Of a DNA stretch of 13,187 bases, positions 1 to 13,187 are shown one piece after another (the first letter of the stretch is position 1; the number at the start of each line of letters is the position of its first letter). Under the pieces are notes generated by a model. That model was not told the origin of the DNA, made no database searches, and saw only the letters and a list, made by a program, of their open reading frames with translations. The position numbers were made by a program, and so were the translations under genes. The stretch lies in contig JAYEMF010000082.1 in NCBI GenBank assembly GCA_034717975.1, positions 1-13,187 of the forward strand, given 5' to 3'. Origin of the DNA: Campylobacterota bacterium. Its GTDB lineage: Bacteria; Campylobacterota; Campylobacteria; Campylobacterales; Sulfurimonadaceae.

Positions 1-35
1 CTTATGGGCACCTCTAAAAACCCTGGATATCATCA

Positions 36-134
36 GCGTTACATACATTTTCGTGATCAAGGCAGGTTCTTGTCAGCGTAGCAGGGCTACGGTGGCAAGG
101 TTCTAACGCAGACTCACGGACATGTATGTAACGC
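36..134. repeat. Internal hairpin arm 1 of the MITE
   Basis: GCGTTACATACAT (36-48) pairs with ATGTATGTAACGC (122-134). CGTGA (52-56) pairs with TCACG (114-118). Apical stem CGTAGC (77-82) / GCTACG (86-91). Confidence 0.85.
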
Positions 135-141
135 CCTTCGG

Positions 142-242
142 GAGGGCAAATAAGGCACAATCTTCCGTCCTAAAATCTCTTGAATTACCTATGGGTAGTC
201 CTTCAAGATTTTAAAACGAAATCTTGCACCTTCTTTGCCCTC
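142..242. repeat. Internal hairpin arm 2 of the MITE
   Basis: GAGGGCAAA (142-150) pairs with TTTGCCCTC (234-242). TAAAATCT (171-178) pairs with AGATTTTA (206-213). Inner TTGAA/TTCAA and TACC/GGTA stems. Confidence 0.8.
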
Positions 243-271
243 TGATGATATCCAGGGTTTTTAGAGGTGCC

Positions 272-533
272 CTTATCATTGCAGGTGTATCTCTGGCTTT
301 TTTAAGCTCTCCAATGCTTTTAGCCAAAGGCGGCGGTGGAATGGGTGGTAAAGGTGGCGGACAAGGCGGTATGCAGTCCAAATCCCAGACACAGACAAAG
401 TCTCAAGATCGTAAAAGAGTAAAAGATGGTTCCGGCCAACAAAACCAGTACCAATATCAAAATCGATACAAAAACGGTAACGGAGAGGGTCAAGGCAGCG
501 GAGAAAGTCAAAAAAAGGGGACAGAACAGATAA
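272..533 (+). pseudogene. Small secreted Gly/Gln-rich protein, interrupted by the MITE in its signal peptide. The native start is probably upstream of the window; the track ORF is 224..604.
   Basis: Reads LIIAGVSLAFLSSPMLLA|KGGGGMGGKGGGQGGMQ...QTQTKSQDRKRVKDGSGQQNQYQYQNRYKNGNGEG, i.e. a hydrophobic h-region plus LLA cleavage site followed by a low-complexity polar body. Removing the MITE and one TTAT restores CTT ATC ATT GCA (LIIA). Read-through from base 1 into the MITE stops at TAG 79-81. The natural end is probably TAA 531-533, one base out of frame after the A7G4 run; as sequenced the frame continues to 604. Confidence 0.6.
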
Positions 534-537
534 TCTC

Positions 538-558
538 TATCGCTTCGGCGGTACCTTT
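538..558 (+). terminator. Short hairpin with a cUUCGg tetraloop between convergent genes; possible terminator
   Basis: TATCGC-TTCG-GCGGTA (538-553) followed by CCTTT. It lies between TAA 531-533 (+) and the stop at 566 (-). The U-tract is weak. Confidence 0.4.
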
Positions 559-565
559 AAAAAAA

Positions 566-1255
566 CTAAAGCAGGAAAGTACTGCCTCCCATCAAAATGA
601 GTAAAACCGCACTCATTCTCTCCAGCCCTACGCGCCACTCTCTTAACTGTACCCTGATCTGCTCACCGAAATAGGCTATGCCTACGCCAAAGATTATGGC
701 AGGCATAAGAATGGCACCCATACCAAAGCCAAGGCCCAGAGAGAGTCCGACCGAAGCACTCGCCGTCGCAGAAGACGCAAGCATCACTGTACCCAAGGGA
801 GCGCATGGATTCAGGGCCATACCGACACCCATAAAGAAGAGGCCTCCGGGGAGAATGTTCTGCAGTCGGAACTTGCTGCCGAAACGTTCGAAGAGTCCTG
901 GGTTTACACCTGCCGAGCAGTGTTCCTGCTCTTTTTGGCTGCTGAGAAAGAGCAGGCCTACGCCGACCATGACCGTCGCGCCACCCAAAAACATACGAAC
1001 CCATGAAGTATCGAGACCCTCTTGTATCATCTGCCCCAGCAGTCCCGAGAGGAGACCGAGCATAGCGTAACCGCTGAGTCGACCAAGTGAAAATGGAAGG
1101 ATGGTCCGCCATGAGTTACGAACTCCGCCGTCTCTGGCAAAAAAAACCGGGCCAAGATATGGCAGGCAGGAGATGTTGCAGGGACCCAGACCAAAGATAA
1201 GCCCCAGCGCCACCGCCAGGGAGAAGGTCATCGTAGCCGGATCGACTTCAAACAC
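566..1255 (-). CDS. DsbD/CcdA-like (DsbD_2 / 'TauE-SafE'-annotated family) integral membrane protein
   Basis: 229 aa with about 6 hydrophobic segments, GTG start 2 nt after the activase stop. Two Pro-Cys motifs in pseudo-symmetric halves (GLGPCNISCLPY and ALNPCAPL) plus 'FSLGRLSGYAMLG', typical of this family. Confidence 0.8.
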   Translation of the reverse strand: MFEVDPATMTFSLAVALGLIFGLGPCNISCLPYLGPVFFARDGGVRNSWRTILPFSLGRLSGYAMLGLLSGLLGQMIQEGLDTSWVRMFLGGATVMVGVGLLFLSSQKEQEHCSAGVNPGLFERFGSKFRLQNILPGGLFFMGVGMALNPCAPLGTVMLASSATASASVGLSLGLGFGMGAILMPAIIFGVGIAYFGEQIRVQLREWRVGLERMSAVLLILMGGSTFLL

Positions 1256-1257
1256 TG

Positions 1258-2067
1258 TTATTCTGCTTCTTCTTCGTCAAGGTAGGCCTCAAGCGCAAGA
1301 ACTGCCGCACCGAGCGCCGTGGTGATCTGCGGTATCTCCGGGATTACAAGTCTTTTTCCCAACTCATCTTCCATGGCCGCTACTAACCCCTTGTTTAAGG
1401 CCGGGCCGCCGTCAAAGTAGACATTGCCATCGAGCCCGACACGTTTGGCCAGACGGATGGTACGCTTGGCGATGGAGTAATGGATCCCCGCAACGATCTC
1501 CTCTTTCCCATGACCATCAGCGAGCAGTCCGATAATCTCCGACTCGGCAAAGACTACACAGGTGCTGTTGATAGGAAGCGGAGCCCCTTTGATGTTAAAG
1601 TGGTAATCCCCCAGCTCTTCCAGTTCGATCTCGAGGTTCATCGCCGTCACGTCAAGGAACTTCCCTGTTCCGGCGGCACACTTGTCGTTCATGACGAAGT
1701 TGGTCACCGTACCCATATCGTCGATCTGGATCGCCTTGGTGTCCTGTCCACCTATGTTGATGATCGTCTTGATATCACCGTGTGCCCGCCCTGCCTCAAT
1801 GGCGCCGATGGCATTGGCGGTGATCTCGCTGACGGATTCGTCGGACTCTTTCATCAGCTTCCTGCCGTAGCCCGTCGAAGTCATATAGCTAAGATCATCC
1901 ATCGTGAGATCACAACCAGAAAGCATCGTCTCCAGTGCTGCGACAGCATTTTTTCTGAAGTGGCTTCCCGTCGGGGTCACTTTTGAGGCAAGAATATTTT
2001 TCTCCTCGTCTATCAGAGCGATTTTAATGGCGGTCGAACCAATGTCGATTCCTGCAAAGTAATTCAT
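1258..2067 (-). CDS. ATP-dependent [4Fe-4S] activase, BadF/BadG/BcrA/BcrD (HgdC/HadI / DCCP-reductase) family
   Basis: ASKHA motifs GIDIGSTAIK, TGYGR, IGGQDTK, MNDKCAAGTGKFL, INSTCVVFAESE and GGPALNKG. The two cluster-ligating Cys are present. ATGA overlap with the upstream gene. Confidence 0.95.
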   Translation of the reverse strand: MNYFAGIDIGSTAIKIALIDEEKNILASKVTPTGSHFRKNAVAALETMLSGCDLTMDDLSYMTSTGYGRKLMKESDESVSEITANAIGAIEAGRAHGDIKTIINIGGQDTKAIQIDDMGTVTNFVMNDKCAAGTGKFLDVTAMNLEIELEELGDYHFNIKGAPLPINSTCVVFAESEIIGLLADGHGKEEIVAGIHYSIAKRTIRLAKRVGLDGNVYFDGGPALNKGLVAAMEDELGKRLVIPEIPQITTALGAAVLALEAYLDEEEAE

Positions 2068-3344
2068 TTTCTTCTTCTTCGTTTGGCTTTAAGTGACTCT
2101 ATAAAGGCTTCAATACGCGTGGAGAGCTGTCCCATATCATCAGGGCTATAGTCGGACTCTACGAAAAGCACAGGAACTCCCGCGTCATTCAGGGCTTTGG
2201 TAATGCTGTTTTGTTCCATGGAGTAGACCTGGCAGCCGGAAAAGGCCTGGTAGACTACACCCTCGGCGGCAAACTCTTTGGCCATACGAAGCAGCTTGCG
2301 TTTGCGGTCGTCGTTTTTCGTAAAGATGGGACAGGTGCACGGTTTCAGATAGTTGTCGGCGATGCCGTCGACCATGGCATTGATGTGCCACTCATCGACA
2401 GAGACCATGTCATAGAGCATGCGGTTGGATGAACAGGTCTCATCGGCCACAATGACGCCGCCTGACTCCTCAATAAGTACAGGAAGCTTTAGGTTGGGAA
2501 AGATCGCCGGCGAACCGGTAAAGAGCAGTCTTGGAGCACGGCGCTGCGCGGCGGAGAACTTCTCCTCTTTACGCTTTTCCAGCTCTTCGTTAAGTCTGTT
2601 AACCGCTTCTGTCCAGTTTTCTATCTTGTCGAAAAAGTAGGCATTGGTCACCATAAAGACATCTTTCCCGAGGATAACGGCAGGCCCCTCTTTTCGAAGA
2701 TCATGAAGTTTTCTGTACGCTTTTTGCGCCAGAGCGACTTTGGCCATCGCCTCTTTGAGTGAGCCTTTGGTCACCTTTTTTCCGGTGATCTCTTTGAGCG
2801 AGGTGGCAAATTTCCGGATGGATCGCTGCCAGTAGAGCCGCGCCTCTTCGCTCTCTTTGACGGGAGGCACTTCCATATCGTAGACACTGTAACCCATCTC
2901 GCTAATCATGCCGCCCGCTTTTCGCTTCTGGTCACAGGTCGCAGGCAGAACAATGTCATCTATCTGGTTGATAAATGGGAGTGTCGATTTAGCATCCAAC
3001 ATACCCAACGTCGCCTTGACGAGTGAACAGGACTTTGCCGGCATAAACTCCGCCCCGTTATGGTCATCGGTGTAAAAGCCATTACAGAGCCGTACAGGTA
3101 CACCGCCAGCGGCATAGATGAGCTCGTCGGGGACCTGCACACACATGGTTCCAACGATCTTTTCGTTTTCATGCAGCGACTTGCCTTCGCAGTAGACCTT
3201 TTCGTAAAGCTCATAAAAGTAGTTCATCGACTCGGGGTTGTCGGGAAAGTCATCTGTAATACGTCGCAGCATTCTGCTGGCTTCACCCGCCTGATGCGTA
3301 AGGTTAAAGGGGGTCTTTTTCACTTCCTGCTGTTCGTTATCCAT
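2064..3344 (-). CDS. 2-hydroxyacyl-CoA dehydratase (HGD-D) family Fe-S protein, single subunit, double-cubane cluster protein (DCCP)-like
   Basis: 426 aa with motifs VGTMCVQVPDELIYAAG, VRLC, KSCSLVK, ATCDQK, PRLLFTGSP, VADETCS, PCTCP, SGCQVY and ESDYSPDDMGQLSTRIEAFIE. Nine Cys in total. Adjacent to the activase, with no second dehydratase subunit. Confidence 0.9.
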   Translation of the reverse strand: MDNEQQEVKKTPFNLTHQAGEASRMLRRITDDFPDNPESMNYFYELYEKVYCEGKSLHENEKIVGTMCVQVPDELIYAAGGVPVRLCNGFYTDDHNGAEFMPAKSCSLVKATLGMLDAKSTLPFINQIDDIVLPATCDQKRKAGGMISEMGYSVYDMEVPPVKESEEARLYWQRSIRKFATSLKEITGKKVTKGSLKEAMAKVALAQKAYRKLHDLRKEGPAVILGKDVFMVTNAYFFDKIENWTEAVNRLNEELEKRKEEKFSAAQRRAPRLLFTGSPAIFPNLKLPVLIEESGGVIVADETCSSNRMLYDMVSVDEWHINAMVDGIADNYLKPCTCPIFTKNDDRKRKLLRMAKEFAAEGVVYQAFSGCQVYSMEQNSITKALNDAGVPVLFVESDYSPDDMGQLSTRIEAFIESLKAKRRRRK

Positions 3345-4314
3345 TTTTATTTCCTTTTTCCATACGCTTGATGTAGCCCTCTACCGTCGCTTCGAAGATC
3401 GGCTGACCGAGAAAGTCCACTTGCAGCGCCCCCTCTTCCGGACAGGCGGCGACACACTTGAAACACATGATGCAGTCATCCTGGAGGATATTCCTGCTTT
3501 CGACATCATCGGCGATCTCTTTGATCTGCATATCACAGACTGTGTAACAGTCGCCGCACTTCGTACACTTCGAGCCGTCTTTTTTCAGTTTGAGAAAGGC
3601 CAGTTTGGAGAGCATAAAGTGCAGGGCGCTCATCGGGCAGAAAAAACAGAAAAAACGCTTTTTGACAAATGCTCCTGCCAGGAAAAGTCCCGTTATAAGC
3701 ATACCCAGAGTCGTTAGTATCATCTTCGTTATCGAAGAGAAGTCGATGGTAAGCTGGGAAAAGTCACCCGCAAAGATCGGGATGATGGTCCGGCCCGGGC
3801 AGATCATGCAAAAAGGCGTCGTCATATCATGGGAAAACCATCCTGCACCGATGCCCATCGGGATAAAGATCATCAGCACCAGCAGAATGTACTTGATCTT
3901 TTTAAGTTTCCTGAACTGATCCCATGTGTAGGTGGAGTAAGGAATCCCCATCTTGCTTCGGAGTGCTGAGATCCAGTCCTGAATAGTACCCAATGGACAG
4001 GCGTACCCACACCACCCTTTGTTCAAAACCAGAAACCAGAGCACAAAATATAAAAACCCGACCAGAACCGCTATGCCCGCCATACTGAAGAGCGATGAGG
4101 GCGATCTCGCCAGTTGATGCTGCAGCGGAATAAAATAGCAGGTTGCCCCCTGCCCTTCATTGTTGAAGCCGCACGCAAATGTCGGTATGCTCTCTCCAAG
4201 ATTGATCGCCGCATACCCGCCGTAGACAAACAGGATAAAAAAGAAGAGCTGAAGCCAGAACCTGAAGTTTCTCAGGTCAACCCTGTTTATTCGATCTCGT
4301 ATCTTCTTAATCAA
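3337..4314 (-). CDS. Membrane-bound 4Fe-4S polyferredoxin, NapH/MauN/RdxA-like
   Basis: 325 aa with 4-5 TM segments. Motifs WCGYACPLG, FCMICPG and FCFFCPM, plus a C-terminal 2x[4Fe-4S] domain (CTKCGDCYTVC; CIMCFKCVAACP). TTG start overlaps the upstream stop (TTGATTAA). Confidence 0.92.
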   Translation of the reverse strand: MIKKIRDRINRVDLRNFRFWLQLFFFILFVYGGYAAINLGESIPTFACGFNNEGQGATCYFIPLQHQLARSPSSLFSMAGIAVLVGFLYFVLWFLVLNKGWCGYACPLGTIQDWISALRSKMGIPYSTYTWDQFRKLKKIKYILLVLMIFIPMGIGAGWFSHDMTTPFCMICPGRTIIPIFAGDFSQLTIDFSSITKMILTTLGMLITGLFLAGAFVKKRFFCFFCPMSALHFMLSKLAFLKLKKDGSKCTKCGDCYTVCDMQIKEIADDVESRNILQDDCIMCFKCVAACPEEGALQVDFLGQPIFEATVEGYIKRMEKGNKNG

Positions 4315-5284
4315 GGCGCTGCTCCTTGTATACGTTCAGACGTCTTCTTCGGTAGAGATAAACAGCTAAACCCGATGCGAAAAGTCCAAAGAGGCCGATC
4401 AAAAGGCCGTAGAGGTAGGACTTGTAATCTTTTGTCGAAGGGTAGTAACTCCCATGAGCGGTTGCTTTATAATGGATACTTTTAAAGCCATCTCCCTTGT
4501 AGAGACCGAAATCACTGCTCTCGTATTGGGCAATAATCAGAAAGTTTTCCCGTGTACGCCTTTTAAACTCATGCCACTGCGGGTAGTAGTCGCGTATCAT
4601 CTCGAAAGAGACCCTGCCTTCGGCATTGCTTTTCAACGTCTTGGCCCACCCTTTTTGCGTGACCATCGTCACCGAAGCACCACTGAGCGGCTTACCGTAG
4701 TGCAGGAGTGTAAAACTGACGACATCGCCTGATGTCACATGGGTATGCAGGTTCTCTTTGGGAAAACGTTCGCGGATGATATCGATAGGCGCATCGTTAT
4801 AGCTGTTGGCGACTATCTTCTGTGCAACGTCGTCATGCCCTTCCCTGCAGCTGTGCTGAAGGGCTTCTTTTTTTGCTGTAGAGATATGCAGCGTATCGCC
4901 ATCGAGATGCTTGCTGATCATAAAGAGGTTGTAATACCCCTCATCGGCCATCTTGAACATCGCCTCGGCATAGCCTCTGTTCTTGAAAGCAATCGGCTTG
5001 ATGCTCTTTTTGGCATCGAGCAGCATAAGCGGTGTCTTGTTTTGTTTGACATAGGAAGACGTAACGAGGTCCTCCCCTTCACGCAGCCAAAGCCTTTTGG
5101 CCGTCCCACCTTCTCTGCTTCTCTGAACAAGTCCATCGTGTGAGGAGCGCATTTTTTTGGCAATCTCTTTGGTAGGAGGGGTATCGGAAAACCAGTAGGT
5201 CTGCGATGCGAAAAGTTCACTGCCAAGCAACATTGAAAGAATAAGTGCCGGCACTGCTTTATAATTGAAAAAAGAATATATCAT
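4307..5284 (-). CDS. Exported, C-terminally membrane-anchored protein with a DUF4198-like / transthyretin-like beta-sandwich domain
   Basis: Start reassigned to ATG 5284 (325 aa) because GGAGG lies at 5291-5295 and the track's longer start falls inside a terminator hairpin. Signal peptide ...ALILSMLLGSELFA|SQ; 'VSFTLLHYGKPLSGASVTM...KSNAEGRVSF' signature; C-terminal TM helix followed by RRRR. Confidence 0.7.
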   Translation of the reverse strand: MIYSFFNYKAVPALILSMLLGSELFASQTYWFSDTPPTKEIAKKMRSSHDGLVQRSREGGTAKRLWLREGEDLVTSSYVKQNKTPLMLLDAKKSIKPIAFKNRGYAEAMFKMADEGYYNLFMISKHLDGDTLHISTAKKEALQHSCREGHDDVAQKIVANSYNDAPIDIIRERFPKENLHTHVTSGDVVSFTLLHYGKPLSGASVTMVTQKGWAKTLKSNAEGRVSFEMIRDYYPQWHEFKRRTRENFLIIAQYESSDFGLYKGDGFKSIHYKATAHGSYYPSTKDYKSYLYGLLIGLFGLFASGLAVYLYRRRRLNVYKEQRLD

Positions 5285-5318
5285 CGTAGACCTCCAGGTT
5301 TTATCAAAATAACGGAAG

Positions 5319-5364
5319 TGTAAAAAAGGGGTGCCTTTACCTAGCAGGCACACTCTTTTTTACA
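5319..5364 (-). terminator. Rho-independent terminator-like hairpin directly after the TonB-dependent receptor gene
   Basis: Minus strand TGTAAAAAAGAGTGTGCCT-GCTAGGTAA-AGGCACCCCTTTTTTACA: a GTGCCT/AGGCAC stem extended by A6/T6 arms, 10 nt after the stop at 5374. Confidence 0.75.
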
Positions 5365-5373
5365 TCTTATTTA

Positions 5374-7587
5374 CTAAAACCTCATACTCAGACCGGCATA
5401 AAAGACACGACCCGGGTTAACGGTAAGTCCCATATCGCCTGCATTGTACAGACCATCGTCATTTCTGTCCCCGGTAACACGCGGCATCATGTACCACTGC
5501 TCATCAAAGACATTGTCGACCTTGGCAAAGAGTTCTGTATCAAAACCAAGCAGTGCCGTATTGTATTTTGTTCGCAAGTTATAGACTTCATAGCCCGCTA
5601 CTTTTACCTGATTCAGTTCATCGGCATACTGGCTTGATTTGTGAGTAACCTCAGCCGTCAGTGACCAGTTATTCAAGATTTTGTAATCAGCACCAAGATA
5701 AACCGTATGCTTGGATATTCTTGGTACACTATTTCCTGCAAGATCGTATCTATCTACTACGACATCAGCTCCGCGCGGAGGAACTGTTTCATCAAAAACC
5801 ACAAGGGTGTAGTTATCGTAGCGCGTATATTCAGAATCAAGATAGGTATAGGCCAGATCGAACGACAAGTCCTTTGTTCTATCACTATTCAGGCTCAGCT
5901 CCAAACCTCTGTTACGTACATCTGCAAAGTTACCGTACTGAGACGCATAATCAGGGTCTGTCACATAGTTACCACCGTTGCGCACGATCATATCATCCCG
6001 GTTAAGTTGATAGACTGATACCTCGTACTGTATCAGGTCAGTTTTTCCACGATAGCCGATCTCATAGTTATAGGTTTTCTCTGTGTCTATATCTGGATTA
6101 TTTTCATAAACATAACGACCAGAGAGAATATCTCCGGCATAAAGCTGATCAATAGTCGGCACCCTGAAACCTGTAGAGACACTGGTGTAAACGATACTGT
6201 CAGGATTGAACTTGTATACGGCACCTACCCTGTAAGAGAATTCTTCAAAATCTTTATTCCATGTTTCTGATGCTGCCGGGTCAAAGTCATTTGAGTAATC
6301 ATAGTCCAAAGCATCATACCTGGCATTAACCGATGCGACCAACTTATCGGTAACTCCATATTTCACCTCACCGTAGATGGCACGTATCTTTTCCTCAAAA
6401 CTGGTATCGCTGTTAACCTCACCCACAGTGTGGTCTGTACCTCTCCTGTCAGTGTAATCGACTCGATAAACACTGTTTTTATCCTCTTCATTGTTGGCGA
6501 GGTCCAGACCGATCATCGTGGCCAACACTTCACTGTCATTGCGCAACTCCGACTTGATCCCTGTCTGGATGGTATTGGCATAAGCATCATATAAGTGATC
6601 GTCTCTCCCACCATCTCTATCGGTATCATATGCACCACTTTTATTCTCTGTGGTATCTTCATAACGGTAAACCTGCGCCATCAGGTTGGCCGTATCACTG
6701 AAGTCTTTCGAGTAGGTAAGGAAGAACTTGCTCAGATCAATATCATAATCGGTGCTATACCCGACTTCACCTTTACTTTCCGGATTGGTCGCAATCTGAT
6801 CAACAGGATTTCCTAAATCATCATAAACGACAGCAGTAATAGAACCCGAATCATTTTCATAACGCTTCGTCACATCAGCCCCGAAAGTAATATCACTGGT
6901 ATCGTCGATGTAGTACTGCAGTTTTCCGTTAATCGACTTCGTCCAGTAGTCAGAATCTTCCCAGTACCCGTCACTCGCCTTGTAGCTTCCCTGAACCATT
7001 ACGGCAAAGTCTTCCGTACTGCCGTTATATTGGGCCAGGTATTTTTCATAACCGTGACTTCCCTGCTCCGTCGCGATCATCCCTTCATTTTTAGCCTTAG
7101 CTCTTTTTGTGGTAATAACTACCGCTCCGGCCAACGCATCATTACCGTATAAGTAAGAAGCACCACCCTTGATCACTTTGATGCTTTCAATATTATCCAT
7201 ATCGATGTTGACACTACCGGCACGCTCCTGAACAGGAACACCGTCGATTACAATGGCGACACCCGGTTTTTCACCCATATATACTTCTTGACCAATACCG
7301 CGGATATGGATCTTGTTGGAATCGCCTTCGTTGATCCGTGCCGTAACACCCGGGATGGTATTTAAAACATTGGCAATATTTTCCGCGTGGTGCTTCTCAA
7401 TCTCCTCGCCGCTTCTTACCGCAGTACTTGAGACTTCCGTTCTTTTAGACTCGAACCTGTCGTCGATCGTCGATGACTCAACGGTAATCGCATCCAATTC
7501 AACTGCATCTGCAGCATTCAGTGCAGCGCTGCTCCCCAATAAAAAACAAAGCAGCGTAGTACTTTTTGCCAAGTGACCTATTCTCAT
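5374..7587 (-). CDS. TonB-dependent outer-membrane receptor
   Basis: 737 aa with a signal peptide, TonB box (LDAITVES), plug motifs (IPGV, IHIRGIG, IVIDGVP, IESIKVIKGGASYLYGNDALAGAVVITTK), barrel motifs (GFRVPTIDQLY, VDNVFD) and a C-terminal Phe (PGRVFYAGLSMRF). RBS AGGGGAG upstream. Confidence 0.97.
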   Translation of the reverse strand: MRIGHLAKSTTLLCFLLGSSAALNAADAVELDAITVESSTIDDRFESKRTEVSSTAVRSGEEIEKHHAENIANVLNTIPGVTARINEGDSNKIHIRGIGQEVYMGEKPGVAIVIDGVPVQERAGSVNIDMDNIESIKVIKGGASYLYGNDALAGAVVITTKRAKAKNEGMIATEQGSHGYEKYLAQYNGSTEDFAVMVQGSYKASDGYWEDSDYWTKSINGKLQYYIDDTSDITFGADVTKRYENDSGSITAVVYDDLGNPVDQIATNPESKGEVGYSTDYDIDLSKFFLTYSKDFSDTANLMAQVYRYEDTTENKSGAYDTDRDGGRDDHLYDAYANTIQTGIKSELRNDSEVLATMIGLDLANNEEDKNSVYRVDYTDRRGTDHTVGEVNSDTSFEEKIRAIYGEVKYGVTDKLVASVNARYDALDYDYSNDFDPAASETWNKDFEEFSYRVGAVYKFNPDSIVYTSVSTGFRVPTIDQLYAGDILSGRYVYENNPDIDTEKTYNYEIGYRGKTDLIQYEVSVYQLNRDDMIVRNGGNYVTDPDYASQYGNFADVRNRGLELSLNSDRTKDLSFDLAYTYLDSEYTRYDNYTLVVFDETVPPRGADVVVDRYDLAGNSVPRISKHTVYLGADYKILNNWSLTAEVTHKSSQYADELNQVKVAGYEVYNLRTKYNTALLGFDTELFAKVDNVFDEQWYMMPRVTGDRNDDGLYNAGDMGLTVNPGRVFYAGLSMRF

Positions 7588-7617
7588 ATTTAACTCTCCC
7601 CTAAAATAGTTGTTGCG

Positions 7618-7653
7618 ATTATTGCGTGGAAGTGTTAATTATGTGTTAATTAT
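7618..7653 (-). promoter_or_regulatory. Putative regulated promoter of the receptor cluster: perfect 11-bp tandem repeat plus a -10-like AATAAT
   Basis: GTGTTAATTAT twice at 7632-7642 and 7643-7653 (minus strand ATAATTAACAC x2). AATAAT on the minus strand at 7618-7623, 9 nt from the proximal TAACA. An 11-bp period is typical of OmpR/PhoB-family boxes. Confidence 0.65.
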
Positions 7654-7729
7654 TTATTTTTATATTAAGTTAAGACTATAGGATAATTTAAAAGGGTTGT
7701 ATTGAGCATTTATGTAACGCGCCCTGCCT

Positions 7730-10700
7730 TTAAGAGGTAGCGAAATTTTTGTGGGTATAGCTGTACATAACCGGCAGGTAGAGCAGATTCAAGACAGTCC
7801 CCCACGCCAGACCGAAGCCCAACGCTACTGCCAGCGGCTGGAAAGTCGCTGCCTGCCCGGAAGCGAAAAAGATAAGCGAAGAGAGCCCGATAACCGTCGT
7901 AACGGAAGTGAGAACGATAGGTCTGAATCTTCGCCCCGCCAAGACAAATATCTCCTCTTTGACCTTGGCCTGCTTCAGCGTAGACATCATGATGATCCCG
8001 TCATTCACAATGACCCCTGCAAGCCCAAGCGCTCCTATAAGTGAAGGGAGCGAAAGGTTCATTCCCATGATAAAGTGTCCCATAAAGACCCCCAGAAAAG
8101 AGAAGGGGATGATAGAGATGATGATCAGCGTCTGTCTGATGGAGTTGAAAAGATAGAGAATAGAGATAAAGATCAGGGTAACAGAGAGGAGAGTCGCCAG
8201 AACCAGATCGGTTTCAAGTGCTTTTTTCTGCTCAGCTTCGCCTTTGAGCTTCAGCCTGACCCCCTCATTTTTGAGTTTGTCGAGGGTCGGCTGAATCTGC
8301 TCCATCGCCTCCGTTGCCGTAACAATTTTTGGATCGACGTTCGCAAAGACAAAAAAGCTTGTCTCCCCGTCGTCTTTGACCAGTTTTTCCAGAGATTTGA
8401 CCACCTCAAACTCGCAGACATCCTGGAGCTTGACCATTTTATTGTTCTTCAGCGGGATCTGCAGCGTCTGAAAGTGTTCATAATCATCCTGGTTGAAAGA
8501 TCTAACCTTGACCTCCAGCAGGCTCTTGTCGTCAAAAACAACCCCTACCCGCCTGGAAAGATAGAGATCCGCGATGTAGGCACCCACAGACTCTTCAGTA
8601 ACACCGAGCTTTTCACCGTAGGCATTCACTTTGAGTTTGATCTCGTCCACTCCGGTCTTGATGTTGTCTCCGGAGTACTTGATCCCTTCGACGCCATCGA
8701 GGCTTGCTTCGATCTCCCGGACGGCTTTTATCGCCTGCTGATAATCCTCGCTGACCACACCGATGCGGATATCGGCTTTGACATGCCCCATCCGTTTTTC
8801 AACCACCATCAGGTTTTTCAGTTTGAACGCTTTTTTATACCCCTTCTTCTTAAGCCAGCCGCGGAGCTCTTTTGATATCTCCTTGGATGAACGCTCCCTT
8901 AGCCTGTCGGTGTCGTCGTAGTAGAAACTAAGGTAGGGAGTAATGTATCTGTCTAAAAGATTATCGGGTTTCTTTTTATGAAGCTCCACCGTGATATATC
9001 CGACATAAGGGTACATCTCGGCTCCTCCCGTCGCACTTCTTCGGTAACCGGCGGTAGAACTGACATATTGAATGCTAAATCGTTCTTTCTCCTCCAGCAG
9101 ATCACGTTCAAGAGTCTGTACAATGTGCAGAGACTCTTCAAGCTGCATCGCCGAATCGCCTTTAAAGGTGATATCGATGGAAGTGGCATCAAAGGGCTGA
9201 AACATCTGGAATTTCGAACTTTTAATACCACCGTATATCAGTACAGGAACAATAATGACAAAAATGAGCAGAAAACTTTTCTGATAACGGACCAAAGCTC
9301 TTAACAGTGTCGAATAGAGCCGGTTTACCCGCTCCCATGAAAGTGTGCGCGATGTGGGGCTGAGCAGATGCGTGGCGTGGATCGGCAGAAAGATGAACGA
9401 CTCGATCAGCGAGGCGATGACCAGAGCACTGAACGCAATGGGGACGAGCTGTATGATCTCGCCCAGACGTCCGGTTATCATCAGCAGCGGTATAAATGAG
9501 AAGAGTGTCGTCAGAGATGCGATGGTTACGGGTTTTGCCATCTCTTTCGTACCCAGGAAAGCGGCTTCCTTGGCACTGTACCCTTTTTCGATGTACTGCT
9601 GGATATTTTCACTTACGACGATCGCATCATCGACGATAATACCGATGGCGATCAGCACCCCTATAAGCGAATTGATGTTGATGCTGTAGCCCGTGAAATA
9701 GAAATAGATCGCCCCTATGACAAACGAGGTCGGGATCCCCAGTGCGATAATGAACGCCATACGGGCATTGATGAGTGCGAAGGTCAACAGCGTTATCAGG
9801 ATGACACCGACCAGAATGTTGGAGATAACTATATTTAGCCGGTCTTTGATGATGGTGGACTGGTCACGCCTGACATCAAATTCCACGCCCTGCACACTCA
9901 TCTTGTCAATCAGTGCATAGATATTCTCCGAGAGCTTTATCGCGTCACCCTTCGGGTTTTGGGAGATCGCCAGGGTAATGGCGTTTTTACCGTTCATACT
10001 TGCGAGTGTAGAAGAGTCTTCATACCGTTTGCTGACCGTCGCGACATCACTGAGGGCTATCTGAAGATCACCGATATTGAGCATGGTCGCTTTGAACTCA
10101 TCGACATACTTCTTGCCACTCTGCGTCGAGAGGTAGTACTGCGCTTTGGCATCGTCTATCTTGCCCAGTGGAAAGATATAGGAGAGCTCGGAGATCGTCT
10201 TGACCACCTCTCTTAGCGAGAGACCGTAGGCATCGACTTTCTGCTCATCGATCAACACCTCGTAGAACATGTCCGAGTCACCGAATATCGTTACATCGGA
10301 GACATGCTCCATACCCATCAGCCGGGTCTTGAAGCGTTTTGCCAGATCTTTGAGCGCATCCCGCGATATCTCGTTTGAACGGATCGAGAGATGCATCAGG
10401 CTTCTGGAGTGGGCAACACCCCTTACGACCGGTTCATCCATATCACCCGGCAGTGTCGGCACCACAAATGCAATGGCATCTTTGACCGAGTCGAGCAGCT
10501 CCCGTTTGTCTTCACCCTTTTCAATCTCCAGGATGATGGAAAAACGGCCCGGGGAGATAACGGATGTGACGCTTTGCACCCCTACAATATTTTTTGTCTC
10601 ATCCTCAAGCGGCGTCACCGCCATCTTGTTCAGCACATCCACCGACGCCCCGCTGTAACTGCCGCGTATGGTGACCGAATCGGGTTCAATACGCGGCGAT

Positions 10701-10813
10701 ATCTCTTTGGGGGTCTGGCTGTAGGCGTAGATACCTACGGCAAAAAGAAGGAAAAAGAGGGTGTAGTTGATTTTATAGTTTTCAATAAAAAACTTTAAGG
10801 TCTTCTCAAACAT
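7730..10813 (-). CDS. RND efflux transporter permease subunit (AcrB/AcrD/AcrF family)
   Basis: 1027 aa with the 1+5 / 1+5 TM layout and two large periplasmic loops. Motifs AIGIIVDDAIVVSENI, GVIVNDGII and RRFRPIVLTSVTTVIGL. Confidence 0.97.
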   Translation of the reverse strand: MFEKTLKFFIENYKINYTLFFLLFAVGIYAYSQTPKEISPRIEPDSVTIRGSYSGASVDVLNKMAVTPLEDETKNIVGVQSVTSVISPGRFSIILEIEKGEDKRELLDSVKDAIAFVVPTLPGDMDEPVVRGVAHSRSLMHLSIRSNEISRDALKDLAKRFKTRLMGMEHVSDVTIFGDSDMFYEVLIDEQKVDAYGLSLREVVKTISELSYIFPLGKIDDAKAQYYLSTQSGKKYVDEFKATMLNIGDLQIALSDVATVSKRYEDSSTLASMNGKNAITLAISQNPKGDAIKLSENIYALIDKMSVQGVEFDVRRDQSTIIKDRLNIVISNILVGVILITLLTFALINARMAFIIALGIPTSFVIGAIYFYFTGYSININSLIGVLIAIGIIVDDAIVVSENIQQYIEKGYSAKEAAFLGTKEMAKPVTIASLTTLFSFIPLLMITGRLGEIIQLVPIAFSALVIASLIESFIFLPIHATHLLSPTSRTLSWERVNRLYSTLLRALVRYQKSFLLIFVIIVPVLIYGGIKSSKFQMFQPFDATSIDITFKGDSAMQLEESLHIVQTLERDLLEEKERFSIQYVSSTAGYRRSATGGAEMYPYVGYITVELHKKKPDNLLDRYITPYLSFYYDDTDRLRERSSKEISKELRGWLKKKGYKKAFKLKNLMVVEKRMGHVKADIRIGVVSEDYQQAIKAVREIEASLDGVEGIKYSGDNIKTGVDEIKLKVNAYGEKLGVTEESVGAYIADLYLSRRVGVVFDDKSLLEVKVRSFNQDDYEHFQTLQIPLKNNKMVKLQDVCEFEVVKSLEKLVKDDGETSFFVFANVDPKIVTATEAMEQIQPTLDKLKNEGVRLKLKGEAEQKKALETDLVLATLLSVTLIFISILYLFNSIRQTLIIISIIPFSFLGVFMGHFIMGMNLSLPSLIGALGLAGVIVNDGIIMMSTLKQAKVKEEIFVLAGRRFRPIVLTSVTTVIGLSSLIFFASGQAATFQPLAVALGFGLAWGTVLNLLYLPVMYSYTHKNFATS

Positions 10814-10848
10814 TGTTTTCCGCTATTTTTTCTCTCAATATAAGGTGT

Positions 10849-10858
10849 ATTATACTCA
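10849..10858 (-). promoter_or_regulatory. Putative sigma70 -10 element for the RND gene
   Basis: Minus strand TGAGTATAAT, with TATAAT at 10849-10854, about 35 nt upstream of the ATG at 10813. Confidence 0.5.
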
Positions 10859-10882
10859 TCTCGTTATCGATTTACGCCAATT

Positions 10883-12718
10883 TTATTTAAAATCTTTCAA
10901 AGCCGTCTCATACGCCTCTTCAAAGCCGACGACCTTGCCGCCAAATCTCTTGGCGAATCGGGACGCATCTTCTTCAGAGGCGAAGGCATATTTGCTGACC
11001 TCGCTCATAGTCCCTTTTTTCTTGCTGCCGACTACATAATAGGCCTCACTTGCCTCGATGAACCCAAGCCCCTTCGTATCAACTACCCTGATCTCCTCAA
11101 GCGGTTTGCCATTGATGTTTTTCGCTTCGGAAAGACAGTGGATGGAGCAGTACTGCAGCACTTTTCCATCTATCGTCGCGGCATGATTCGTCTTGTAGAA
11201 CATCGGCAGCTTCATCCCGCAGTTGCTGCAGGCGAGTTTATCGCTTCCCGACTGAAGGATGAGAGCCTTTTGCGGCATAACGCTTTGAAACATCTTCTCG
11301 GAGTGGGCTCCGTGACTGCCGTGATTGCCATGACCTCTCTGCGCACGTCCGTAAGTATCGAGGATGTATCCCCGGTAGAAGTTTACAGCGAGGAAAAATA
11401 TGATCAGTGACGCGGCAAATGGAAAAGCCAATATTTTTGCACTCTTTTTTGCCTCGATCAGTGCCATGCGTTTATAGAGAATGATGATTGCCCAGACGAC
11501 ACCGACATACTTTAATAATCCGAACAGATGCACCCACGCATCTTTTCGGCTTGCCAACGGGGCTATATCGACCTCCATGCCGATCCCGTAGGCAAAACCT
11601 TCGACCATCCGCTCAATATTGCTGAGAAACAGCATCTCCATGGTATGACCGATAGAACTGAGTATAAAGAGCGGCGCGAAAGCGTAGCCAAGCGTATAGA
11701 AGACCGTCGAGTACTCCTGTTTGAGAATCTTCGAGGCGATAAACATTCCCGCAATTACAGCCAACACGCTAAAGAGCGTCGCATATAAAAAAGCGAACAT
11801 CCCGATGGCATCAACAGGACCGAAACTCATGAAGCTTTCGAAATATGCCGCCGTCTTCGACCAGATGAACTCGTCGGCAATCTTGCTGCGTCCCAGACCA
11901 TGGTGAAATGCCATCGTGATCGGAATTGCCGCAAGGATCAGGATGTACGCCCACACCTCCGCCTTTTCAATCTTGAAATATGAGAACATCGAGAAGGAAG
12001 GTTTGGTCATCTTGAAGCTCACCGCTTCACAGGCATCAGAGCAGTCCATACAGAGTGTACAGTCCCCCATGGAGTTCTTTTTATCGAAATTGAACGGACT
12101 CAATCCATGCGAGCACGCCTTGGCACACTCGAATGTCTTACACTCGCTGCACGCACTCTCGTAGGTGCCAAGCCAGGTAAAGGAGAGCTTATCGTAAGCC
12201 CGTGTCAATGTACCGATGGGGCAGATATACTTACAGTAACTCATCTCTTTGTAGAGAAAATAGAACAGCACCGCCGTCAATGTCATCACCCCGAACATGA
12301 TTGCCGACCCCAAAGGTGTACGATAGACACCGGGGAACATATAGTAGACGCCCCACCAGCCTATAAAGAGCAGAAAGAGACCGATATAGCGGTTTTCCAG
12401 CCAGCGCGGCATCCGCTTTTTCAGGCCGAACTTCGTAATATAGTGGCCCATGAATCCATGAGGACAGATCCCGCAGAAGATGCGTCCGAACGTCGGCAGT
12501 GTCACCACCATAAAGAGTGACCAGAAAAGCCCCCAGAAGAGCGCCGTGGTAAAGAGGTTCTCTTTTCCTGGAACAGCAAACCCAAGAACAATGGCGTAGA
12601 TAAAAACAGCTAAAACAGCGAGCCGAAGTCCTAAAAGAAACTTCTGGTTTTTGAACAGAAACCCGAGTATGGGTTTTTTATAGATATCATTATCGTCCCG
12701 CTTTATATGCTTAACCAC
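10883..12718 (-). CDS. Membrane 4Fe-4S binding protein (NapH/NosR-C-terminal-like) fused to a C-terminal NosL-family domain
   Basis: 611 aa, GTG start. N-terminal part: GRIFCGICPHG, YCKYICPIG, CSECKTFECAKAC and CTLCMDCSDAC with many TM helices. His-rich linker GHGNHGSHGAHS. C-terminal NosL signatures CSNCGM, YCSIHC, YVVGS..GTM and AFASEEDASRFAKRFGGKVV. Confidence 0.88.
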   Translation of the reverse strand: MVKHIKRDDNDIYKKPILGFLFKNQKFLLGLRLAVLAVFIYAIVLGFAVPGKENLFTTALFWGLFWSLFMVVTLPTFGRIFCGICPHGFMGHYITKFGLKKRMPRWLENRYIGLFLLFIGWWGVYYMFPGVYRTPLGSAIMFGVMTLTAVLFYFLYKEMSYCKYICPIGTLTRAYDKLSFTWLGTYESACSECKTFECAKACSHGLSPFNFDKKNSMGDCTLCMDCSDACEAVSFKMTKPSFSMFSYFKIEKAEVWAYILILAAIPITMAFHHGLGRSKIADEFIWSKTAAYFESFMSFGPVDAIGMFAFLYATLFSVLAVIAGMFIASKILKQEYSTVFYTLGYAFAPLFILSSIGHTMEMLFLSNIERMVEGFAYGIGMEVDIAPLASRKDAWVHLFGLLKYVGVVWAIIILYKRMALIEAKKSAKILAFPFAASLIIFFLAVNFYRGYILDTYGRAQRGHGNHGSHGAHSEKMFQSVMPQKALILQSGSDKLACSNCGMKLPMFYKTNHAATIDGKVLQYCSIHCLSEAKNINGKPLEEIRVVDTKGLGFIEASEAYYVVGSKKKGTMSEVSKYAFASEEDASRFAKRFGGKVVGFEEAYETALKDFK

Positions 12719-12756
12719 TGCCCGCCTTTGAAAAGATCAATTTAAAAAATTGCTCC

Positions 12757-12787
12757 ATTATATTGACCAACTGTTACAGCATTGTTA
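12757..12787 (-). promoter_or_regulatory. Putative promoter of the ferredoxin-NosL gene: TATAAT plus an 11-bp-spaced TAACA repeat
   Basis: ATTATA at 12757-12762 (TATAAT on minus). TGTTA at 12772-12776 and 12783-12787. Same geometry as 7618-7648. Confidence 0.6.
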
Positions 12788-12821
12788 ATTTTCAGTACTT
12801 AACCCCTATCAAGCCCAAGCC

Positions 12822-12830
12822 TGATACAAT
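12822..12830 (+). promoter_or_regulatory. Extended -10 promoter (TGnTACAAT) for the flavoprotein gene
   Basis: TGATACAAT ends 7 nt before ATG 12838. The spacer TCCCTCC has no Shine-Dalgarno sequence. Confidence 0.65.
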
Positions 12831-12837
12831 TCCCTCC

Positions 12838-13187
12838 ATGAAAAGAGTCGCCATCATCGGCGGCGGGGCGGCCGGGTTGATGGCGGCTATTACCGCCGCA
12901 TCTGCCGGAGCCAGTGTCGAGGTCTTTGAGCAGAACAGCCGGGTGGGGAAGAAGATCCTCGCTTCGGGCAATGGACGCTGCAACATATCCAACACCCGCC
13001 TCAGCCAAAATGACTACTTCGGAACACACCCGGAGTTTGTCAATTTCACGCTTTCACAATTTGAATTCAGCCACTTCAAAAAATTCTGCCGCTCGATCGG
13101 TATTCTTCTAAACAGCAAAGAGGACGGCAGGACCTACCCCCTCTCTGATGAAGCCAGATCTGTAGTTTTGGCACTGGAGAGTTATGC
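12838..13187 (+). CDS. HI0933/YhiN/BaiN-family NAD(P)/FAD-dependent oxidoreductase (5' part; runs off the window; absent from the ORF track)
   Basis: Manual translation MKRVAIIGGGAAGLMAAITAASAGASVEVFEQNSRVGKKILASGNGRCNISN...EDGRTYPLSDEARSVV shows the GxGxxG Rossmann motif and the GKKILASGNGRCN family signature. Confidence 0.95.
   Translation, partial: MKRVAIIGGGAAGLMAAITAASAGASVEVFEQNSRVGKKILASGNGRCNISNTRLSQNDYFGTHPEFVNFTLSQFEFSHFKKFCRSIGILLNSKEDGRTYPLSDEARSVVLALESY

Follow-up and report, generated by a model that had tools for sequence, protein, structure and literature searches.

Here, we analyzed a gene cluster that joins a TonB-dependent outer-membrane receptor to a reductase of the double-cubane cluster protein (DCCP) family. 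The stretch of DNA examined is contig JAYEMF010000082.1, positions 1 to 13,187, from a Campylobacterota bacterium of the Sulfurimonadaceae (assembly GCA_034717975.1), and its whole length is referred to below as the window. The window is one entire contig (13187 bp) of a 149-contig, 2.5-Mb genome. Calling of open reading frames (ORFs) gave eight large genes, all on the minus strand (Table 1). A preliminary description, made from the letters of the DNA, had reported six co-oriented genes, from the receptor gene to the DsbD_2 gene, the last five of them tightly coupled. The coordinates and all of the junction strings were exact. From the DUF4198-like gene to the DsbD_2 gene, neighboring genes are joined by two 8-nucleotide (nt) overlaps (TTGATTAA and ATGGATAA), a 4-nt overlap (ATGA), and a 2-nt gap. 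The six protein identities were borne out by Pfam and NCBIfam models, with the DUF4198 match lying below threshold and being supported by the fold. The six genes are real, but the system extends beyond them, reaching upstream to position 12718 and taking in the RND permease gene and the gene for a NapH-like/NosL protein.

Table 1. Genes and regulatory sites of the system in the window
Feature	Position	Strand	Remarks
NapH-like/Yip1-like/NosL membrane protein	10883..12718	-	611 aa; GTG start
Solo RND permease	7730..10813	-	1027 aa; ACR_tran 6.7e-131
TonB-dependent outer-membrane receptor	5374..7587	-	737 aa; Pfam barrel and Plug
DUF4198-fold periplasmic protein	4307..5353	-	348 aa; probable start 5284
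NapH-like membrane polyferredoxin	3337..4314	-	325 aa; Fer4_5 and dicluster domain
DCCP-family (double-cubane cluster protein) reductase	2064..3344	-	426 aa; HGD-D, NF040772
DCCP-R/HgdC-type ASKHA ATPase ("archerase" activase)	1258..2067	-	269 aa; PF01869, TIGR00241
DsbD_2-family inner-membrane protein	566..1255	-	229 aa; PF13386
Predicted operator TTAACACATAATTAACAC	7632..7649	-	two 7-bp direct repeats, 44 nt before receptor ATG
Possible second operator TTAACAATGCTGTAACAG	12771..12788	-	3 mismatches to consensus; 52 nt before NapH-like/NosL gene

The reductase matched the Pfam HGD-D family at 1.1e-95. It passed the NF040772 model ("double-cubane-cluster-containing anaerobic reductase") by a small margin, with 358.6 bits versus a cut-off of 350. 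Subunit models of benzoyl-coenzyme A (CoA) reductase and 2-hydroxyacyl-CoA dehydratase gave 24 to 109 bits versus cut-offs of 420 to 750, with HadC at 88 bits versus 700 and BzdN at 109 versus 454. The best solved relative was the DCCP of Carboxydothermus hydrogenoformans (7yyl/6eno, 2.6e-69); BzdN (2.8e-27) and the beta subunit of 2-hydroxyacyl-CoA dehydratase (2.5e-15) were weaker. In DCCP, the [8Fe-9S] cluster is bound by six Cys. Seven Cys of the reductase align to Cys of the DCCP chain 7yyl_C, and C68, C87, C106, C137, C304, C336, C338, and C371 were invariant among 78 orthologs. The window has one HGD-D gene only; the second, paralogous gene of an alpha/beta or B/C pair is absent from it. 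An identity as 2-hydroxyacyl-CoA dehydratase or benzoyl-CoA reductase was rejected, given models far below their cut-offs, a single HGD-D gene, and no CoA-related neighbors. The protein had been set apart from ordinary CoA dehydratases from the start, and this view stood, as the DCCP equivalog cut-off was passed and the solved DCCP ranked far ahead of the solved dehydratase.

The activase matched BcrAD_BadFG (PF01869) at 4.8e-52 and TIGR00241 with 231.7 bits versus a cut-off of 125.4. Its residues C130 and C170 were invariant in 69 orthologs, and its gene directly followed the DCCP gene in 73 of 73 cases. In DCCP-R, the partner of the solved DCCP, two Cys bridge a [4Fe-4S] cluster, according to the part of the report cited here (PMC9351452). 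The same part describes the solved pair as a soluble two-component enzyme and states that the natural substrate and physiological role of DCCP are unknown (PMC9351452). Judged by its sequence, the HGD-D protein of the window is a DCCP with an adjacent ASKHA partner.

A DCCP alignment was used to scan one genome per species. The scan returned 107 relatives, of which the best 80 were kept, corresponding to 79 loci. ORFs were then clustered over 81 sources, namely, the window, the 79 loci, and locus L010. DCCP was present in 80 sources, the activase in 73, the NapH-like protein in 66, the DUF4198-like protein or domain in 64, DsbD_2 in 58, and the TonB receptor in 55. ExbB and TonB were each found in 33 sources, ExbD in 30, the RND permease in 23, and an OmpR-type regulator in 10. 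Since many loci are short contigs, these counts are lower bounds.

Gene order was also conserved. The DUF4198-like gene or domain preceded the NapH-like gene in 54 of 65 cases, and the NapH-like gene preceded the DCCP gene in 66 of 74. The usual order in Campylobacterota was receptor, DsbD_2, capture protein (the carrier of the DUF4198-like domain), NapH-like protein, DCCP, and activase, followed by RND and/or ExbB-ExbD-TonB. In six loci of gammaproteobacterial type, the order was DUF4198-like protein, NapH-like protein, DCCP, activase, and DsbD_2. The receptor, DUF4198-like, and NapH-like genes occur twice in four loci (L034, L036, L041, and L043), each with a single DCCP-activase pair, and in L076 the DUF4198-like, NapH-like, and DCCP genes occur twice with one activase.

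Thus, the gene set recurs in 79 further loci of Campylobacterota and Gammaproteobacteria. Genes for a CoA-transferase, CoA-ligase, or acyl-CoA dehydrogenase, whose absence had been noted at the outset, were found neither in the window nor as families recurring in at least 4 of the 81 sources. Two points had been named beforehand as able to overturn the preliminary description, namely, the neighborhood in other genomes and the identity of the HGD-D protein. On examination, the neighborhood was conserved and the protein grouped with DCCP. Together with the lack of recurrent CoA families, these results supported the earlier suggestion of an envelope-spanning module rather than a fermentation pathway.

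In an even sample of good genomes across the phylum (E <= 1e-100), 18 of the 401 Campylobacterota genomes, from 10 of the 64 genera sampled, had an ortholog; each of the two largest families had none (0 of 118 and 0 of 158). Among the genera named in the titles of the loci are those of the sulfur cycle, such as Sulfurimonas, Sulfurovum, Sulfuricurvum, and Sedimenticola. The DCCPs of two loci titled "Candidatus Moraniibacteriota" (L058) and "Pseudomonadota" (L044) nest in Sulfurimonas and Sulfuricurvum clades, and these loci are probably mis-binned or mislabeled contigs. Two Sulfuricurvum loci (L071 and L080) carry, at about 1000 to 5900, a divergent second unit without a DCCP of its own, consisting of a receptor, an unknown protein, a NapH-like protein (32 to 33% identity), DsbD_2, and TonB. 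The second unit and the main cluster share an intergenic region with operator copies in both orientations.

The consensus of this operator is TTAACAC-N4-TTAACAC, with the heptamers 11 bp apart, an OmpR/PhoB type of site. The 2.5-Mb genome contains two perfect sites versus 0.03 expected, one of which is the site at 7632-7649 of the window. With up to three mismatches, the operator was found in 52 of 60 upstream regions of related clusters, mostly 44 to 58 nt before the start codon. It was not found in the four gammaproteobacterial upstream regions scanned. With up to one mismatch, 75 sites were present in 1.26 Mb (79 loci) versus 1.1 expected from composition. Fifty-nine of the 75 lie within 250 nt upstream of system genes: 38 before receptors, 12 before ExbB, 3 each before DsbD_2 and TonB, 2 before the regulator, and 1 before the capture protein. 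Within the window, the site at 12771..12788 is the only other one with up to three mismatches; as a site of this quality is expected roughly once per 13 kb by chance, it is weak alone.

The other perfect site of the genome lies on contig C44 (22992-33349; L092:5992-16349), in front of a NosL-rich operon. This operon encodes an EF-hand protein, a DUF4405 protein, NosL, a double NosL, an FtsX/ABC pair, and two unknown proteins, and it ends with a strong DsbD_2 (170.7 bits), a further unknown protein, and a YhbP-like protein. Just upstream of it, a one-mismatch site precedes an OmpR-family regulator/kinase pair. The response regulator matched no NCBIfam equivalog, with PhoB, RppA, TctD, and CopR-type models at about 118 to 124 bits, under their cut-offs. 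The position of the sites suggests that the regulator/kinase pair is autoregulated and that the operator defines a putative two-component regulon that also holds NosL-domain genes.

Five other genomes were searched for sites with up to one mismatch. Of 20 downstream ORFs checked, 12 were of system type (7 receptors, 2 ExbB, 1 regulator, and 2 strong DsbD_2). Such sites preceded system-type genes in four of the five genomes, with receptors in 4, ExbB in 2, the regulator in 1, and DsbD_2 in 2. Genome G022 gave two further observations. At G022:C1:2040000-2051500 (L121), a perfect operator precedes a DsbD_2 gene; 139 nt further on lie ccoN, ccoO, ccoQ, and ccoP, and this cbb3 oxidase operon continues with DUF4006, a TPM-like gene, and FixH. 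At G022:C1:1929000-1941000 (L123), a receptor gene with a one-mismatch operator stands beside a second regulator/kinase pair and beside a YtkA-like/OEP/HlyD/RND set resembling a Cus-type metal efflux system.

The DUF4198-like protein scored 24.6 bits on the Pfam model PF10670, under the cut-off of 34 and over only the C-terminal quarter of the model; one ortholog reached 35.4 bits. Because of this score, the protein was folded with AlphaFold2 from an alignment of 54 orthologs. A profile of the 54 orthologs found no DUF4198 chain in the PDB by sequence. The structure model was of high quality (predicted local distance difference test [pLDDT], 91; predicted template modeling score, 0.85). Its top Foldseek matches in the PDB were Zcp (2.7e-10, with a template modeling score by target of 0.65) and then IsDUF4198 (2.8e-6), the only two solved DUF4198 proteins. 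The former is a periplasmic zinc-capture protein and the latter binds nickel. On the predicted structure, the DUF4198 fold was confirmed. The sections of the literature cited here describe Zcp in Zn, Cu, and Co forms (PMC12663993) and link DUF4198 proteins to Ni/Co uptake (PMC12537917).

The identity of this protein thus held through its fold, but its start did not: the gene most likely begins at the ATG at 5284 and not at 5353, because GGAGG lies 7 nt upstream of the former and a signal peptide follows it. The protein further has a C-terminal transmembrane anchor and a conserved basic cytoplasmic tail, and its predicted mature N-terminus is SQTYW. The invariant residues are mostly Tyr, Trp, and Gly (G90, Y92, G160, W187, G197, Y261, S263, and R286). 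One position is His in 72% of the sequences and Cys in the group of the window.

The first gene of the cluster, at 10883..12718, encodes a second NapH-like polyferredoxin (NapH2), followed by a five-transmembrane-segment Yip1-like domain, a His-rich linker, and a C-terminal periplasmic NosL domain. The NapH-like part has CX2CP and CX3CP motifs and two four-Cys motifs (Pfam Fer4_5, 3.7e-13). The middle domain is structurally Yip1-like, as seen in Atlas clusters of Campylobacterota "Fer4_5" proteins. The NosL domain (PF05573) scored 2.8e-14, or 54 bits versus a cut-off of 24. It matched Pseudomonas stutzeri NosL (7osf) at 1.6e-6, and the CxxCGM motif is shared, although that stretch aligns weakly.

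The two proteins are related through gene fusions. The capture-protein family comprised 70 members, 33 of which were free DUF4198-like proteins. The full set of NapH2, Yip1-like, NosL, and DUF4198-like domains was found in 18 members (about 900 to 920 aa), and the same set without NosL in 17 (about 770 to 795 aa). One member was cut by a contig end, and the protein of the window alone ends after NosL. The DUF4198-like domain was therefore fused to the NapH2/Yip1-like membrane protein in 35 of the 70; in the 919-aa protein of L035, Pfam detected Fer4_5, NosL, and DUF4198 on one chain. By its domain order, the protein at 10883..12718 appears to be the split-off counterpart of the fusion proteins of about 770 to 920 aa in relatives. 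These fusions argue that the periplasmic capture domains and the NapH-type membrane protein act as one unit.

The NapH-like protein at 3337..4314 matched Pfam Fer4_5 (5.5e-12) and Fer4_10 (7e-11). On NapH-type equivalog models, it gave 78 bits versus a cut-off of 234 and 77 versus 213. It has three invariant CX2-3CP motifs and two [4Fe-4S] motifs, with all motif Cys invariant (65 and 50 orthologs). Residues C48, C59, and H66 were also invariant and lie in a loop predicted to face the periplasm, the topology being deduced from hydrophobic stretches and charge. No nap (NapG/NapAB) or nosZ partner gene was found in a Pfam scan of the window. The structure model was moderate (pLDDT 66, with the periplasmic loop below 50) and had no Foldseek match in the PDB at E <= 0.001.

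The DsbD_2 protein scored 76.4 bits on PF13386 versus a cut-off of 24.9, and 26.4 bits on the DsbD_TM model, just under the cut-off of 27.1. C26-x3-C30, C113, and C151 were invariant in 57 orthologs, and the protein has the DsbD/CcdA hallmark of a conserved Cys in each of two transmembrane segments. No thioredoxin-like family, which could supply a periplasmic acceptor, was among the recurrent neighbors in the 81 sources; a partner elsewhere in the genome is possible. From these features, the protein would be either a thiol relay or a thiophilic-metal permease.

The receptor matched Pfam TonB_dep_Rec_b-barrel (3.7e-47) and Plug (1.1e-21). Its best solved relatives were YncD and PqqU, at about 1e-18. 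Orthologs of the RND permease (59 to 73% identity) lay inside the cluster in 23 of the 81 sources, and the RND gene directly followed the activase gene in 16 of 24 cases. In the window, the RND gene has neither an adaptor gene nor one for an outer-membrane factor next to it.

The cluster of the window appears to have a mosaic origin. Its DCCP was 79 to 86% identical to proteins of six metagenome-assembled genomes (MAGs) titled Gammaproteobacteria, Sedimenticola, or Polarisedimenticolaceae, and only 51 to 59% identical to Campylobacterota proteins. In a FastTree phylogeny, a quick method that here had long outgroup branches, it fell inside a small clade of gammaproteobacterial type with a support of 99; Campylobacterota formed a separate clade of 72 rows, with a support of 97. 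The four neighboring core genes were likewise of gammaproteobacterial type (53 to 91% identity). The receptor, the NapH2-NosL protein, and the RND permease were 66 to 73% identical to Sulfurovum-type proteins, and the genome of the window was placed in the same family as Sulfurimonadaceae genomes. Thus, the affiliation with Campylobacterota held for the flanks and failed for the five-gene core.

Because the core was 79 to 86% identical to gammaproteobacterial MAGs, mis-binning of the contig was considered. The contig has a guanine-plus-cytosine content of 48.4% versus a genome mean of 45.3% (z = 1.9) and ranks 10 of 95 by tetranucleotide distance. Mis-binning was rejected as the main explanation, since the composition is within the range of the genome, at its upper edge, and the flanks and operator are of Campylobacterota type. 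These findings are read most simply as replacement of the native core by a cassette of five genes of gammaproteobacterial type, which would have left the native capture protein without its DUF4198-like domain and abutting the RND gene. Such a replacement speaks for the five genes working, and being exchanged, as a single unit.

With middling confidence, we propose that the system spans the envelope, imports a scarce and tightly bound nutrient in a TonB-dependent manner, and releases it by ATP-driven reduction. The nutrient would most likely be a thiophilic trace metal, and copper is the first guess. The receptor, energized by ExbB-ExbD-TonB (encoded in the cluster in many relatives), would bring the bound form into the periplasm. 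Anchored capture domains, with the DUF4198 fold and, in the window and about a quarter of the capture proteins of relatives, NosL, would hold the cargo at the inner membrane, on or beside the NapH-type membrane iron-sulfur proteins. In the cytoplasm, the activase would spend ATP to push a very-low-potential electron into DCCP. Reducing power could then pass through the NapH-like ferredoxin domain and the membrane Cys motifs to the periplasmic side and free the metal from its ligand. DsbD_2 would import the metal or supply thiol reductant, and the solo RND pump would expel or recycle the spent ligand. An OmpR-type two-component regulator binding TTAACAC-N4-TTAACAC would switch the operon on. 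Direct observation covers the gene content and its conservation, the fusions, the folds, the conserved Cys, and the operator with its regulon; we infer the physical coupling, the direction of electron flow, the site of reduction, and the substrate.

Several observations carry this proposal. The strict synteny, the gene fusions, the front ends duplicated beside one DCCP-activase pair, the ExbB, ExbD, and TonB genes in the cluster, the regulon, and the occurrence in sulfur-cycle genera all count in its favor. A metal cargo is supported by the match of the DUF4198 fold to Zcp and Ni-IsDUF4198 and by the CxxCGM motif of the NosL domain. Copper is favored because NosL domains occur both in the window and in the co-regulated operon and because the architecture resembles that of the cupric reductase CcoG. 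An outward electron route is favored on three grounds. First, the NapH-like gene duplicates together with the receptor and the capture protein, while the DCCP-activase pair stays single. Second, the NapH-like protein has, besides its CX2-3CP and cluster motifs, the invariant C48, C59, and H66 in the predicted periplasmic loop. Third, DUF4198 proteins and TonB receptors accompany PepSY-like electron carriers proposed for periplasmic metal reduction. A complex prediction for DCCP and the cytoplasmic domain of the NapH-like protein (residues 215-325) gave a score of 0.00, which decides neither way.

A number of points weigh against the proposal. By its sequence, the receptor seems to resemble no receptor of known metal specificity: on NCBIfam equivalogs, it gave 177 bits for siderophore, 161 for heme/transferrin, and 87 for B12 receptors, all far under the cut-offs. 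The DUF4198-like domain, a putative metal binder, lacks the His sites of Zcp and IsDUF4198: it has no N-terminal His and, over 54 sequences, no invariant His or His triad. NosL is optional, being present in 19 of the 70 capture proteins and missing from gammaproteobacterial and Sulfurovum-type clusters. In two of the five other genomes searched, operator sites with up to one mismatch were not above the reversed-pattern control (5 versus 4 and 6 versus 8), and in one of these two, G043, no checked site precedes a system gene. A general regulatory link to the cbb3 oxidase was rejected, as it was seen in G022 but ccoN in the genome of the window has no site. Furthermore, Cu(II) should be reducible to Cu(I) at a potential less extreme than the very low one of DCCP, and NapH-type proteins are regarded as having their Fe-S clusters on the cytoplasmic side. 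To our knowledge, outward electron transfer through NapH-type proteins has never been demonstrated. The narrower idea that DCCP and DCCP-R act as an ATP-powered injector of very-low-potential electrons, sent outward through NapH-type proteins to a periplasmically held substrate, is put forward tentatively, and we consider it rather doubtful.

The alternative that survives best, although we think it unlikely, places the reduction in the cytoplasm. Here, a small molecule or metal complex would enter through the receptor and then through an inner-membrane carrier, either DsbD_2 or the Yip1-like domain, and DCCP would reduce it directly. The NapH-like protein would serve only to supply the activase with electrons taken from the membrane or its quinol pool. 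A carrier role fits DsbD_2, a member of a transporter-like superfamily. NapH-type proteins are regarded as quinol dehydrogenases, as their NCBIfam names indicate, and as having cytoplasmic clusters. In the cited portion of its report, the solved DCCP is described as acting on small molecules, which reach the cluster of the enzyme by substrate channels and are reduced there (PMC9351452). However, the duplication of the NapH-like gene with the front end at four loci, next to a single DCCP-activase pair, is easier to understand if the NapH-like protein serves the periplasm, as are the invariant Cys, Cys, and His of its predicted periplasmic loop. In addition, menaquinol as a donor would be strongly uphill for the activase cluster.

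A cobalt or corrinoid cargo within the same architecture is less probable than that. Co(III) would be reduced to Co(II) or Co(I), which would release cobalt held in an inert complex, or else strip or condition the corrinoid after its import. The Co(II)/Co(I) couple is very low and fits an ATP-driven reductase, and the tie of DUF4198 proteins to Ni/Co uptake noted above points the same way. At one gammaproteobacterial locus (L013:12997-15860), DsbD_2 is directly followed, on the other strand, by genes for a small chelatase of the CbiX type, a photolyase, and a MerR regulator that has a B12-binding domain. Against this, no cobalamin riboswitch was found in the window and 13 loci. A scan of the whole genome of the window also returned none (the control was positive in 7 of 14 known genomes), and a genome without any such riboswitch makes its absence at the window uninformative. 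Five gammaproteobacterial carrier genomes contain eight riboswitches, none of which overlaps the cluster loci. No btu or cob family recurs in at least 4 of the 81 sources, the receptor reached 87 bits on the BtuB model versus a cut-off of 600, and the NosL domains of the regulon point to copper.

Less probable again is a chalcogen cargo, with exported low-potential electrons and thiols serving reductive activation of S8 or polysulfide or the assimilation of elemental selenium. The potential of the Se0/HSe- couple is very low. Every named carrier belongs to the bacteria of the sulfur cycle, the capture domain keeps aromatic residues rather than metal ligands, and the many invariant Cys of the DsbD_2 and NapH-like proteins suit sulfur chemistry. 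In Sulfurovum indicum, two neighboring genes (IMZ28_RS04480 and RS04475), which encode a TonB receptor and a "4Fe-4S binding protein" with Fer4_5 and are both candidate relatives, were up 5.6- and 6.9-fold on S0 versus thiosulfate (PMC10045233) and occupy rows 3 and 4 of the table of S0-upregulated genes (PMC10045233, Table S2). The Fer4_5 gene was also up 18-fold under S0 reduction versus nitrate, by the same partial source (PMC10045233). However, the portion of its differential-expression tables used here lists no HGD-D, DsbD_2, or DUF4198 gene (PMC10045233), and sulfide-driven metal starvation would account for the induction by S0 just as well. The system is present in only 18 of 401 genomes, far fewer than there are sulfur users, and NosL and DUF4198 are metal-handling families. 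We know of no TonB receptor that carries S8.

A chance arrangement, in which an ordinary metal-uptake operon lies beside an unrelated DCCP pair, is highly improbable: distant DCCP-activase pairs (29 to 34% identity; L011 and L012) do occur without other system genes nearby, but the overlapping start and stop codons, the order kept in dozens of loci from two phyla, the apparent movement of the five-gene core between phyla as one block, and the operator upstream of whole clusters speak against it.

Import of a metal followed by its reductive release, the reading we prefer, can be compared with several known systems. The reductase and activase resemble DCCP/DCCP-R of C. hydrogenoformans (6ENO and 7YYL), with the same fold family and model and an adjacent ASKHA ATPase with two conserved Cys. 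Unlike that soluble enzyme, the pair of the window lies in an operon with two membrane polyferredoxins, capture domains, a receptor, DsbD_2, and an RND pump. Flavinylation-associated clusters of PepSY-like, DUF2271, DUF4198, and TonB-receptor genes also encode DUF4198 and a receptor together with a transmembrane electron-transfer protein. For these clusters, periplasmic reduction of an imported metal (iron) chelate has been proposed in the part of the preprint drawn on here (bioRxiv 10.1101/2021.01.07.425746). The present system differs in having no PepSY, ApbE, or flavin mononucleotide-binding protein and in using a NapH-type Fe-S wire with a very-low-potential ATP-driven reductase.

CcoG (FixG/RdxA), in the cited parts of two reports, is a membrane NapH-like polyferredoxin (Fer4_5 and dicluster) with a periplasmic beta-sandwich and a role in copper handling (PMC10045233, PMC8267372), and it works for copper export to the periplasm in the service of oxidase assembly (PMC8267372). 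In this it is like the NapH-type proteins here, which nevertheless match neither a CcoG model nor FixG_C and carry NosL and DUF4198-fold domains on the periplasmic side. As in NosL with NosDFY and NosR/NosH, a CxxCGM domain occurs together with NapH/NosH-type membrane Fe-S proteins. Unlike the NosL lipoprotein, however, the NosL of the window is the C-terminal domain of an inner-membrane protein, and no nosZ, nosD, nosF, or nosY gene was found in the window.

The pyoverdine system of Pseudomonas aeruginosa (FpvGHJK/FpvCDEF, PvdRT-OpmQ) likewise combines a TonB receptor with periplasmic metal-binding proteins, ligand-recycling efflux, and a reductase that sits in the inner membrane and acts on the periplasmic side. 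Its reductase and binding-protein families are unrelated to those found here, and it has no ATP-driven archerase. PfeRS and PirRS of the same species are OmpR-type two-component systems with direct-repeat operators before receptor genes. Thus, the parts belong to known families, and reductive release in the periplasm after TonB-dependent uptake has precedents. The novelty lies in the proposed coupling, by way of NapH-type membrane proteins, to a double-cubane reductase driven by ATP, as well as in the operator and its regulon. In the literature, we found no description of a system joining a double-cubane reductase to TonB uptake. Searches on double-cubane proteins and NapH returned none on such a system, as judged by title and abstract, and the portions seen of the literature on DUF4198 gave no link to HGD-D or DCCP among the matches listed.

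Double-cubane proteins are widespread nitrogenase-like ATP-driven reductases, and the conserved operon gives one clade of DCCP a concrete, testable cellular job. The operator and regulon offer experimental handles, namely, a regulator, a promoter, and a short list of co-regulated genes. If correct, the proposal would explain how trace metals locked by sulfide or strong ligands are acquired by bacteria living at sulfidic interfaces, and it would be relevant to those steps of the nitrogen and carbon cycles that depend on copper and cobalt. The electron injector, if real, would be the first physiological role of double-cubane enzymes and the first ATP-driven export of low-potential electrons. Bacteria of the sulfide zone could then open otherwise inert species outside the cytoplasm, for example, Cu or Co locked by sulfide or a chelator, and even S8 or Se0.

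Some features at the edges of the window were also recorded. A 34-nt inverted repeat (97%; 3-36 and 242-275) forms the identical 5' ends of two divergent small genes. One of these is a complete ORF on the plus strand (about 245-604), and the other, on the minus strand, runs off the left end. The complete ORF encodes a low-complexity protein rich in Gly, Met, and Gln (..GGGGMGGKGGGQGGM..) behind a signal peptide. Between the divergent genes lie two more nested inverted repeats. The word GCGTTACATA occurs three times: at 36-56 and 114-134, both inverted-repeat arms at the left end, and at about 7712-7722, just past the RND stop codon and upstream of the receptor gene. It could be a repetitive extragenic palindromic (REP)-like or terminator element, and it resembles a GTAACA variant of the operator half-site. 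At the right end, positions 12838-13185 (ORF from 12763) hold a partial gene for a flavoprotein of the HI0933-like/aminoacetone-oxidase family, divergent from the system. This family (cluster 28, with a representative that is HI0933-like by Pfam) was present in 4 loci.

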